Shown here: positions 41,047-42,867 of the stretch, one piece after another
How positions within the stretch are numbered: position 1 is the first letter of the stretch
Layout: each line of letters begins with the position of its first letter
From: Clostridia bacterium
GTDB taxonomy: Bacteria; Bacillota; Clostridia; TANB77; CAG-508
Reading direction: 5' to 3'
NCBI GenBank assembly: GCA_045643205.1
Contig: JAZUKI010000003.1
Coordinates: 150,516-214,515, forward strand
DNA length: 64,000 nt
Program-made: the position numbers and the translations under genes
The notes under the pieces: generated by a model
What the model was told of the DNA's origin: nothing
The model's input: the letters and a program-made list of their open reading frames with translations, nothing else
The model's database searches: none

Positions 41047-42867
41047 TTATAAATCTCCGTGCCCATCATCATGAAAATTGTTTTGCTTTTTGTTATCTGA
41101 AACATTTGAAGTTTCAGATACTGAATTATTTTCAATTGAAGTATCTATATTAGAAACAGCTTGTTCTTTTTTATTTATCAATGCTTTGAATTCATCACTA
41201 TTTAAGTAGTTTGTAATGTCAGTAAGTTGCAAACTTTCTGGAACATTTAATGGTTCTCTTAATAGTTGATAAGTTGCAAATAAATATTTATTAACAAATG
41301 TATATAGCGGACTTTCTTTTGAAACTTCGATAACTTTCTTTAATTCTAAGTGTCTACTATCGTAAGTTGTAATCATTGTAGTTTCATCAATTGCACGAGA
41401 ATCCTCTTCAATAGAGAATGCAAAAGGTGTAATAAAATCAACTGCATCAATGAAGTCATTCCACTTTTCTGTATTTCCTTTAGGTGGAAGTATTGGAAGT
41501 GGAGGAATTGCTTTGAATTGATCGTGTGCACTAAATCCAGAAATTCCATCTCTTAATTGATTTTCAGTTTGTAATTGAATTTCTACTCTTCCAACAGGTG
41601 TTTCTAAAACTATAAATCTTGCTCTATAACCATTTTCATTGTCTTTGTTTTTTTCTTCAACAACTTTGAAATTAAATCTTTGTAATACTTTAGAATCTGT
41701 AAAAATCTTACGAACTTGATTACAGAAAATTGGGTAATAAACTAAGTCGTCATTAAGTTCTTTATATCTTGCTAAAACAGCCTCAAAGTCTGATTTGTAT
41801 TTTCTTTTTGGATCATAAAACATTTTGAAAGCGTGATCAATTTGTAATTCTGCTTTTGAAAGATTTGAATCACCTAATCCAAGTGCATTTATTTTGTCTA
41901 ATTTTGATTGAAGTAAGTCTTTCTTTGAATCAATAAAAGACATATACGCAGTGGCTTCAGGAGATACAACCTTTTTGATTGAATCTAACATTTTTATAAA
42001 TTGATTATAGTAATCAGATGTTTTTATGTTTAATGAAGAAACATCTGCAATATCAGTTAAAGATTCTTGTACTGTTTTTTGAAATTCAGAAATTTGTTGA
42101 TCATTTTCAAGTTTCTTCTGCATTAAAGGATCATCACTTGGAAGAACCTCATCAGTAGAGTGTAGTATAAGTTTCATACCAAATAAGTCATTAACAGGTT
42201 TATCATTTTTATATGCTGAACGGTAAAAAATTTTTCCTAAAAAGCTGAATTGAGATTTAATTCTTGCAGAAGCAGTAATATGTGATTTTGTATTTCTACT
42301 AAGCTCAAACATAATAGCATTTGCAAATCTAGTGAAGAATTCTTCAACTTGAGGCATGTCATCTGTTGGATAAATCTTAACTAATCGTTTAAATAACTTT
42401 CTATAATCTGTTTGCCATACAGTAACAGGTGTATTTTCTGAAAGTACATTTTTTGCTAAACCTTTTTCAATCCCATTTGCTACAGTTGTATTAATATGTT
42501 TAGAAATAGGATTGCTAGGACCACCTGAAAACTTGTCTACAACATCTTTACTATTAGCATTATAAAAAATATTTGCATCTGGATTTAAAATAAAGTTGTA
42601 TTTTCTACCTCTATATACTTTAGGCTTATCACTAGTTGAAGTAGATTGTTCTTTAACAGCTTTTTTTAAATCAATGATAGAATCAAATAAAGATGTTGTT
42701 TCAGCAACATATTTTAAATCATCACGAACAAACTCATAAAGTCTATCGGCATTTAAATCACTTAAAGTTGCATCTACATCTTCACTTAAATTTGTGTTTG
42801 AAGTTTCGTTTATATCTTCGCTTGAATATTCAATTTCATTTAAATTTTTATCTTGATTTTCAGCCAT
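41047..42867 (-). CDS. Large (606 aa) RelA/SpoT-like nucleotidyltransferase-domain protein with about 170-aa insertion and unknown N- and C-terminal regions
   Basis: SARIKSQFSFLGKI, DLFGMKLILH ... GYRARFIVLETPVGRVEIQLQTENQ reproduce the synthetase-domain motif order (RxKxxxS, DxxGxR, GYxSxH, EIQIRT). Confidence 0.5.
   Translation of the reverse strand: MAENQDKNLNEIEYSSEDINETSNTNLSEDVDATLSDLNADRLYEFVRDDLKYVAETTSLFDSIIDLKKAVKEQSTSTSDKPKVYRGRKYNFILNPDANIFYNANSKDVVDKFSGGPSNPISKHINTTVANGIEKGLAKNVLSENTPVTVWQTDYRKLFKRLVKIYPTDDMPQVEEFFTRFANAIMFELSRNTKSHITASARIKSQFSFLGKIFYRSAYKNDKPVNDLFGMKLILHSTDEVLPSDDPLMQKKLENDQQISEFQKTVQESLTDIADVSSLNIKTSDYYNQFIKMLDSIKKVVSPEATAYMSFIDSKKDLLQSKLDKINALGLGDSNLSKAELQIDHAFKMFYDPKRKYKSDFEAVLARYKELNDDLVYYPIFCNQVRKIFTDSKVLQRFNFKVVEEKNKDNENGYRARFIVLETPVGRVEIQLQTENQLRDGISGFSAHDQFKAIPPLPILPPKGNTEKWNDFIDAVDFITPFAFSIEEDSRAIDETTMITTYDSRHLELKKVIEVSKESPLYTFVNKYLFATYQLLREPLNVPESLQLTDITNYLNSDEFKALINKKEQAVSNIDTSIENNSVSETSNVSDNKKQNNFHDDGHGDL

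Follow-up and report, generated by a model that had tools for sequence, protein, structure and literature searches.

What does a protein do that carries the motifs of an alarmone synthetase in two separated parts, and does it belong to the defense genes beside which it is encoded? These questions are raised by a gene at 41047..42867 on the reverse strand of a 64,000-nucleotide (nt) stretch of Clostridia bacterium contig JAZUKI010000003.1, which was analyzed as a whole and is called the window here. The sequence-only reading of this DNA described the 606-amino-acid (aa) product as an orphan with a split RelA/SpoT-like core, encoded within a defense island and perhaps comparable to CapRel-type defense proteins. 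On the basis of sequence comparison and structure prediction, we favor, with a probability of about 0.6, the view that this RelA/SpoT homologue (RSH)-like protein is a regulated, soluble, chromosomally fixed, stand-alone RSH pyrophosphokinase of new architecture.

A split RSH core in a new architecture

The open reading frame (ORF) contains the previously quoted motifs in order, namely SARIKSQFSFLGKI (residues 200-213), DLFGMKLILH (227-236), and GYRARFIVLETPVGRVEIQLQTENQ (413-437), and a fifth RSH-type motif, AHDQFK, is located at residues 447-452. With deviations that are discussed below, all catalytic motifs of RSH synthetases are present in the canonical order: RxKxxxSxxxK, the Mg-binding Asp (DxxGxR), GYxSxH, EIQIRT, and AHxxYK.

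Searches of the PDB with the single sequence and with a shallow profile yielded no match. When a profile of the family was used, RelSeq (PDB 1vj7) was matched with an E value of 1.8e-6 and E. coli RelA with approximately 9e-6, both halves of the core being collinear with the known enzymes. In the N-half, RelSeq residues 207-280 were aligned, and R241, K243, S247, K251, D264, and R269 corresponded to R202, K204, S208, K212, D227, and K232. In the C-half (RelSeq 304-347), G307-Y308, E323, Q325, R327, and T328 were matched by G413-Y414, E429, Q431, Q433, and T434, and the last motif paired H342, Y345, and K346 with H448, F451, and K452. The ATP-phosphate-binding residues R241, K243, and K251 of RelSeq are thus conserved as R202, K204, and K212, its Mg2+ ligand D264 as D227, its catalytic E323 as E429, and Y308, which stacks on the acceptor purine, as Y414. 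In addition, 26 of the 59 family members individually match the Pfam family RelA_SpoT (PF04607; best E value 7.9e-9).

An alignment of 38 sequences that are 18-29% identical to the query revealed R202, K204, D227, Y286, G413, E429, and P461 as invariant columns; those conserved to at least 90% include S208, K212, Q431, Q433, and H448. A wider alignment comprised 59 sequences with 17-29% identity to the query. The quoted motifs are not chance matches, since they coincide with invariant or at least 90% conserved columns of so divergent a family. We also considered D374, at which the Pfam match of the query starts, as the Mg-binding Asp. This candidate was rejected because D227 is conserved and aligned to RelSeq D264 in the PDB profile alignment, while D374 is not a conserved column of the wide family. 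The predicted structure has the three-dimensional fold of an RSH synthetase, and neither an assignment to an unrelated fold nor a misalignment of the motifs was observed. Profile matches, predicted fold, and motifs all place the protein in the RSH superfamily, and its split core is real.

The quoted motif strings, between which an insertion of about 170 aa was previously noted, are 176 aa apart. The distance from the Mg-binding Asp to the Gly of GYxSxH is 43 residues in RelSeq (D264-G307) and 186 residues here (D227-G413). Between the aligned pieces, 24 RelSeq residues (280-304) are opposed to about 160 profile positions (136-298), and the net insertion therefore amounts to approximately 140 aa.

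The domains were delimited by the RelSeq alignment, by family-wide conservation, and by an AlphaFold2 (AF2) model with its per-residue confidence (pLDDT); a first model from only 15 sequences was of low quality (pLDDT 52.6). All coordinates that follow are on the reverse strand. Residues 1-160 (42388..42867) form a clade-specific N-terminal extension with an acidic tip, which is missing from distant family members and is modeled with pLDDT <50. It contains a constrained motif around residues 46-63, FVRDDLKYVAETTSLFDS, and the further invariant short motifs YxGRKYxF, PIxxH, and VWQxDY. Residues 161-240 (42148..42387), conserved throughout the family, comprise the pre-core helices and the synthetase N-half, laid out as a strand ending in R202-x-K204, a helix with S208 and K212, and a strand starting at D227 (DLFGMK; pLDDT 76-98). 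The helical insertion follows at residues 241-400 (41668..42147; pLDDT 80-98). According to the AF2 secondary structure, four long helices (247-269, 283-298, 306-328, and 360-391) take the place of the canonical RSH connector of about 24 residues; the insertion is kept in all family members, with Y286 conserved. The C-half (residues 401-455; 41503..41667; Pfam match at 374-452) consists of three strands with G413-Y414 and E429-x-Q431-x-Q433-T434, followed by A447-H448-xx-F451-K452. It leads into a family-specific alpha/beta C-terminal domain (residues 456-580; 41128..41502; pLDDT 82-96), which is acidic (pI 4.5), has conserved P461, P481, Y528, and Y554, and gave no Pfam or PDB sequence match and no assignment to a known family. 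A variable acidic tail (residues 581-606; pLDDT <50) and the stop codon complete the gene (41047..41127). Relative to solved structures and Pfam, the architecture is new in its split core, its C-terminal domain, and its clade-specific N-extension.

The gene is monocistronic. As noted earlier, it has its own intrinsic terminator (40952..40988, reverse strand; inverted repeat I9), in which a 16-pair stem is followed by a T-run. A promoter-like site was read from the sequence at 42888..42916 (reverse strand), with an extended -10 element, TGCTATAAT (TATAAT at 42893-42888), and a weak -35 element, TTCATT, at 42916-42911. The leader of about 15 nt contains an AGGAG ribosome-binding site. The protein as a whole is acidic (pI 5.2), and a basic stretch is limited to residues 46-240. 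At the very start of the protein, MAENQ (residues 1-5; 42853-42867, reverse strand) and its codons are nearly invariant across the clade, and the next 40 or so residues are highly variable. One homologue (P0010, locus L001, 9858-11641) was called as a 546-aa protein, with the conserved MAENQ start upstream in a separate 52-aa ORF; this split start is probably due to an assembly frameshift or a recent pseudogenizing indel.

Family, rates of evolution, and chromosomal position

The gene is not an orphan, as had been assumed. Its close clade comprises 15 clusters of 590-600 aa with 48-57% identity to the RSH-like protein, and an exhaustive profile search of 1.84 billion representatives retrieved a wider family of 59 clusters at 50% identity. 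Members of the wider family are mostly 440-575 aa long, align over the region equivalent to residues ~140-580, and originate nearly all from metagenomes.

Among the genes of its neighbourhood, the RSH-like gene is the fastest diverging, with 48-78% identity between loci and a ratio of nonsynonymous to synonymous substitution rates (dN/dS) of 0.19-0.33. The corresponding dN/dS values of the neighbors oapA (see below), adh, ligase, PHP, InosP, p417, and mechanosensitive (MS) channel genes are 0.02-0.16; only p410 and an HD protein come near that of the RSH-like gene. Within the gene, the catalytic halves are most constrained (dN/dS 0.08-0.2; 79-80% identity), the C-half showing the lowest values (0.09-0.18). 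The insertion and the C-terminal domain evolve at dN/dS 0.2-0.45, and linkers and tails at about 0.7-1.0; the C-terminal tail has a mean pairwise identity of 31% and dN/dS of about 1. Residues 30-59 of the N-extension stand out with dN/dS 0.12, as compared to 0.4-0.8 around them. We considered diversifying selection as the signature of a phage sensor and rejected it, since no sliding stretch had a dN/dS meaningfully above 1 and the peak of about 1 was restricted to disordered linkers and tails. Judged from these substitution rates, the pattern fits a working enzyme with fast-evolving accessory parts and not an arms-race sensor.

In relatives, the gene has a fixed position. Its 3' side always harbors a small ORF, an inositol-phosphatase-family gene, and an O-antigen-ligase-like gene, and its 5' side a 700-bp gap followed by a divergent gene for a 199-aa membrane protein. 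The window keeps the same O-antigen ligase gene (27225-28658) and p417. Between these and the RSH-like gene it contains an amidohydrolase gene and a block of about 11 kb with defense and mobile genes (30215..40727, both strands; left boundary approximate), which abuts the 3' side of the RSH-like gene. This block is missing between the orthologous flanks in loci L002, L003, L007, and L012. Because relatives hold the same flanks without the block, it is an insertion beside a conserved gene. The defense island was inserted later and is unrelated to the RSH-like gene, which does not lie within it as previously supposed.

Distant family members have housekeeping neighbors, among them rho, prfA, yabP/Q, aspS, ackA, recG, and rpmB. 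Across the family loci, no conserved neighbor gene and no antitoxin or hydrolase partner was found, in agreement with the earlier remark that a cognate antitoxin is missing nearby. The protein gave no PHROG, phage, or plasmid match, and none of the defense-effector models in PADLOC was matched, apart from a weak CARF3 match on helices 244-320. Two further features of distant members were recorded. A XerC/D-type tyrosine recombinase gene adjoins some of them, divergently upstream in L009 and L134-136 and convergently downstream in L011. Between L134 and L135 (P0079 loci), synteny breaks directly 3' of the RSH-like gene (rho versus pectate lyase), which recalls the island that was inserted on the same side in the window.

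The adjacent OLE RNA and the competing explanations

OLE (ornate, large, extremophilic) RNA is among the largest bacterial non-coding RNAs of still unsolved function. In the seemingly empty 710 bp directly upstream of the RSH-like gene, we detected a full-length OLE RNA of 565 nt (42950..43514, forward strand) that the sequence-only reading had missed. Its score with Rfam model RF01071 was 305.6 bits (gathering score 50), and the match spanned model positions 1-616, the full model length with shortened stems. The promoter-like site of the OLE RNA (42928..42956, forward strand; 10/12 in a consensus scan) consists of TTGATT, a 17-nt spacing, and TATAAT with an upstream TG, and is conserved in the spacer alignment. 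Immediately downstream of OLE lies the gene for OLE-associated membrane protein A, oapA (43579..44178, forward strand; 199 aa). Its product has hydrophobic segments, a DxxxD motif (DVIGD, residues 121-125), and a weak match to CNNM (E value 1.8e-3), all of which are described features of OapA (PMC11332333). The protein is 90% identical to its orthologue in L003 and 90-97% identical between loci.

Between the OLE 5' end and the RSH-like start codon on the opposite strand lie 83 nt, and this spacer holds the two extended -10 promoter-like sites in back-to-back orientation. OLE occupies the same divergent position in 9/9 close-clade loci with enough upstream sequence, and the spacer of about 83-85 nt is almost invariant among five loci, all from close relatives. 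The OLE RNAs of relatives were located at 9207-9776 in L001, 9350-9917 in L002, 9349-9918 in L003, 5275-5846 in L007, and 9349-9918 in L012. Including that of the window, they score 305-318 bits and are 565-572 nt long, with several stems reduced in the Rfam alignment; in this they recall the OLEs termed "variant" in gut lineages with reduced genomes. OapB and OapC are for the most part missing from such lineages with shortened OLE, which were left out of the published partner search (PMC11332333). From its 28% GC content, the 565-nt OLE, and the gut-metagenome sources, we infer that the window belongs to such a lineage.

The RSH-like gene, OLE, and oapA are kept together in the window and L003 while the genes beyond oapA are rearranged, and the N-extension with its constrained motif (dN/dS 0.12) was found only in the OLE-adjacent clade. 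A conserved RCCA, ACCA at 43494-43497 of the window, occurs at a fixed position directly after the OLE closing stem in 35/38 loci in which the 3' anchor pattern matched (among OLE loci L014-L133), so that a tRNA-acceptor-like stem is followed by a single-stranded RCCA. However, the genomes with the pairing are close relatives, as their neighboring proteins are 86-98% identical with dS of about 0.3-1.2. Shared synteny and a conserved spacer are therefore expected anyway, and we downgraded spacer conservation as a phylogenetically meaningful sign. OLE was present near 0/8 loci of distant family members (within the available sequence, up to ±10 kb), and a family member near 0/120 other metagenome OLE loci, of which 69 included 2 kb or more of upstream sequence. 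Given the close relatedness and these two counts, a functional link of the RSH-like enzyme to OLE is only a lead.

The protein is ordered as N-extension, synthetase N-half, four-helix insertion (about 140 aa net), C-half, alpha/beta C-terminal domain, and acidic tail. As a stand-alone pyrophosphokinase, it would move the beta,gamma-pyrophosphate from ATP onto the 3'-OH of a purine nucleotide, the product would be an alarmone of the (p)ppGpp or (p)ppApp type, and the helical insertion and the C-terminal domain could gate the activity. The acidity of the protein (pI 5.2; C-terminal domain 4.5) weakly favors a small-molecule acceptor over RNA. Because the promoters stand back to back, the gene may, in the clade of the window, be co-regulated with OLE RNA-oapA and its stress-response ribonucleoprotein (RNP).

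Several observations weigh against this preferred reading. With the single sequence, PF04607 scored 26.4 bits, below the cutoff of 27, and was matched at residues 374-452 only. Three motif positions depart from those of (p)ppGpp synthetases: K232 replaces Arg in DxxGxR, F418 replaces His in GYxSxH (with A416 instead of Ser in this particular protein), and Q433 replaces Arg in EIQIRT. The chemistry or the substrate may therefore differ. The dN of the gene is about five times that of its neighbors, which is unusual for a housekeeping signaling enzyme. Finally, the suggested co-regulation with OLE draws on promoter geometry in closely related genomes only.

The substituted motif residues, the subthreshold Pfam score, and the dN/dS raised in comparison to the neighbors would also suit a catalytically dead or decaying RSH-fold protein that has a structural role or is being lost. 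We hold this to be the least probable explanation, given that all residues needed for ATP binding, Mg2+ binding, and catalysis show little or no variation throughout a deeply divergent family, that the core evolves at dN/dS 0.08-0.2, and that the reading frame is intact in all loci except one assembly (L001). The same motif deviations leave the acceptor open, and with a fold shared by FaRel2 and CapRel and with the stacking Y414 and the catalytic residues retained, the protein could be a tRNA- or RNA-directed 3'-pyrophosphokinase serving as an endogenous, self-regulated translation brake linked neither to defense nor to OLE. The acidity of the protein outside residues 46-240 and the lack of an antitoxin or hydrolase partner make such a role very unlikely; the HD neighbor in relatives is a generic YedJ-like phosphohydrolase that is absent from the window. 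The proposal of a CapRel-type fused toxin-antitoxin or phage-defense effector, in which a toxic RSH domain would be kept autoinhibited by the C-terminal domain or the insertion and set free by a phage trigger, also fared poorly. The position of the gene is fixed in relatives without any island, distant members reside among housekeeping genes, and the only PADLOC signal was the CARF3 match on coiled helices, with no match to PHROG, phages, or plasmids. CapRel, aligning over about 156 core residues, is no closer than ordinary Rel or small alarmone synthetase (SAS) enzymes, and dN/dS reaches at most about 1, with high values in disordered linkers and tails only. We therefore regard this proposal as improbable.

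The remaining explanation starts from the OLE locus. The protein could be a lineage-specific component or output of the OLE RNP, which docks on OLE or OapA via its N-extension and converts stress sensing into a nucleotide signal, or which pyrophosphorylates an RNA 3' end, e.g., the RCCA of OLE. The divergent full-length OLE at 83 nt in all nine close-clade loci, the back-to-back promoters and near-invariant spacer, the N-extension motif confined to this clade, and the trio that stays intact despite rearrangement beyond oapA speak for it, as does the fact that organisms with shortened OLE, largely without OapB and OapC, were outside the published partner search (PMC11332333). The conserved RCCA is also relevant here, as several RSH toxins are known to pyrophosphorylate the CCA ends of tRNA. 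On the other hand, adjacency and spacer may simply be inherited among close relatives, the pairing is absent from the distant-member loci and the other OLE loci, and the protein and its C-terminal domain are acidic. In the literature searched, we found no paper linking OLE RNA with ppGpp or an RSH enzyme. On balance, we consider an OLE RNP role unlikely. A more specific form, a dedicated partner recruited via the N-extension in reduced-genome gut Clostridia in which OapB and OapC were probably lost, and emitting an alarmone signal or pyrophosphorylating the OLE RCCA, appears rather improbable.

The RSH-like protein extends the RelA/SpoT superfamily by an architecture unseen in solved structures, with a core split by a helical bundle of about 140 aa and a new domain after it, in a family that diverges too far to be called by Pfam and comes almost exclusively from uncultured gut Bacillota. 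Its product, be it (p)ppGpp, (p)ppApp, or a pyrophosphorylated RNA, and its gating by the insert could represent a new regulatory solution in alarmone biology. The back-to-back arrangement with OLE RNA-oapA provides a testable, weakly supported candidate for a protein activity connected to OLE, in the kind of variant-OLE lineage that was excluded from the published partner search. If the protein were indeed an OLE partner, OLE RNA would for the first time be connected to an enzymatic activity and to stringent-type signaling.

Neighboring genes and known systems

The inserted block was annotated using Pfam, PADLOC, and NCBIfam. It begins with two small ORFs, and a forward-strand stretch (31090-38495) contains a helix-turn-helix (HTH) gene followed by the type I restriction-modification genes hsdM (31407-33152), hsdS (33136-34458), and hsdR (34471-37605), the candidate defense gene PDC-S57 with a T5orf172 domain (37622-38212; PADLOC E value 2.4e-80), and a zinc-ribbon-like DUF7695 ORF (38286-38495). 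The toxSAS proposed at 38641 was recovered as a 206-aa gene (38641-39261, forward strand; Pfam RelA_SpoT E value 2.7e-4; PHROG 4012 E value 3e-34), and it overlaps by 4 nt a gene for a Panacea/SocA-domain antitoxin (39258-40010, forward strand; E value 3.4e-19). From its sequence, this pair (38641-40010) looks like a typical toxSAS-Panacea toxin-antitoxin (TA) pair and island cargo. The TnpV-like neighbor is likewise present, encoding 123 aa (40356-40727, reverse strand; Pfam E value 2.5e-37). It overlaps an unannotated 107-aa ORF, and the pair (40039-40727, reverse strand) marks the edge of the island that faces the RSH-like gene. A recombinase gene could not be identified in the island interior, and its boundaries showed neither direct nor inverted flanking repeats other than chance matches in AT-rich sequence.

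On the other side of the locus, a 407-aa protein (44716-45939, forward strand; 6338-7570 in L003) is hydrophobic in a segment near its N-terminus and acidic in its C-terminal tail. Its rate of evolution equals that of the RSH-like gene (56-80% identity, dN/dS 0.16-0.29) among surrounding genes that are 86-98% identical, and it gave no Pfam, NCBIfam, or PHROGs match. In relatives, this neighborhood is rich in nucleotide-phosphate enzymes, all with matches below curated cutoffs (L003 2033-8233 and 12229-13002). They include a YedJ-like HD phosphohydrolase right after oapA, a thymidylate kinase (Tmk), a HisN/CysQ-like phosphatase, and a PHP protein resembling RNase RNM / 3',5'-nucleoside bisphosphate phosphatase. 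The window has no HD, PHP, Tmk, or InosP gene. A synthetase/hydrolase pair flanking OLE-oapA was considered and rejected, since the HD protein is generic, scores below the cutoff, and does not occur in the window. The interval from p410 to adh_short, which in relatives is occupied by the HD, PHP, Tmk, and MS-channel genes, contains in the window a Fur/Zur-family regulator gene followed by three ORFs (46562-49533, forward strand), a second rearrangement near the OLE locus. The three ORFs (46958-49533), the first of which encodes a protein rich in His and Asp, may be read from their translations as a metal ABC uptake system.

Compared with the OLE RNP proteins OapA, OapB, and OapC (PMC11332333, PMC12265935), the RSH-like protein shares with OapA a gene that adjoins ole, and it shows no homology to any of the three. 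Its adjacency to OLE was seen only in one narrow clade, and the protein is not mentioned in the OLE literature searched. The lineage of the window seems to be one of those with reduced genomes, from which OapB and OapC are reportedly missing for the most part.

What defines the toxSASs (FaRel, FaRel2, PhRel, and PhRel2) is a conserved TA-like operon of two or three genes (PMC7229694). The main text of that study, which covers 30 SAS subfamilies, does not contain "insertion" or "Clostridi". The RSH synthetase fold is common to these modules and the RSH-like family, which has no conserved partner. Since it lacks such an operon, the RSH-like gene does not count as a toxSAS TA module: it is monocistronic, with its own promoter-like site and terminator, and the Panacea antitoxin belongs to the 206-aa toxSAS. 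The latter has an unsplit domain, is assigned to PHROG 4012, and matches the RSH-like protein only weakly, in the N-half. With CapRel (PDB 7ztb; PMC9712102), the core alone aligns (156/344 residues), and CapRel has no counterpart of the large mid-domain insertion. Unlike CapRel, the RSH-like gene is fixed beside housekeeping genes and OLE, with no match in defense databases and no sign of diversifying selection. An association with defense islands, prophages, or mobile elements, combined with a defense-model match, was not observed, and the protein is not demonstrably CapRel-like.

A further frame of reference is provided by RelP/RelQ (B. subtilis SAS1 YjbM and SAS2 YwaC; S. aureus RelP) and by the synthetase domain of the long Rel/RelA/SpoT enzymes. 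Sequence similarity to them is low enough for Pfam to miss the N-half and to stay below its threshold, and the RSH-like protein differs from them by the exchanges of R to K in DxxGxR, H to F in GYxSxH, and R to Q in EIQIRT. It has no hydrolase, TGS, or ACT domain. Where both groups connect the strand of the Mg-binding Asp to the GY strand by about 24 residues, it has about 160 residues forming four long helices, and to the core it adds a 125-aa C-terminal domain and, in the clade of the window, a 160-aa N-extension.

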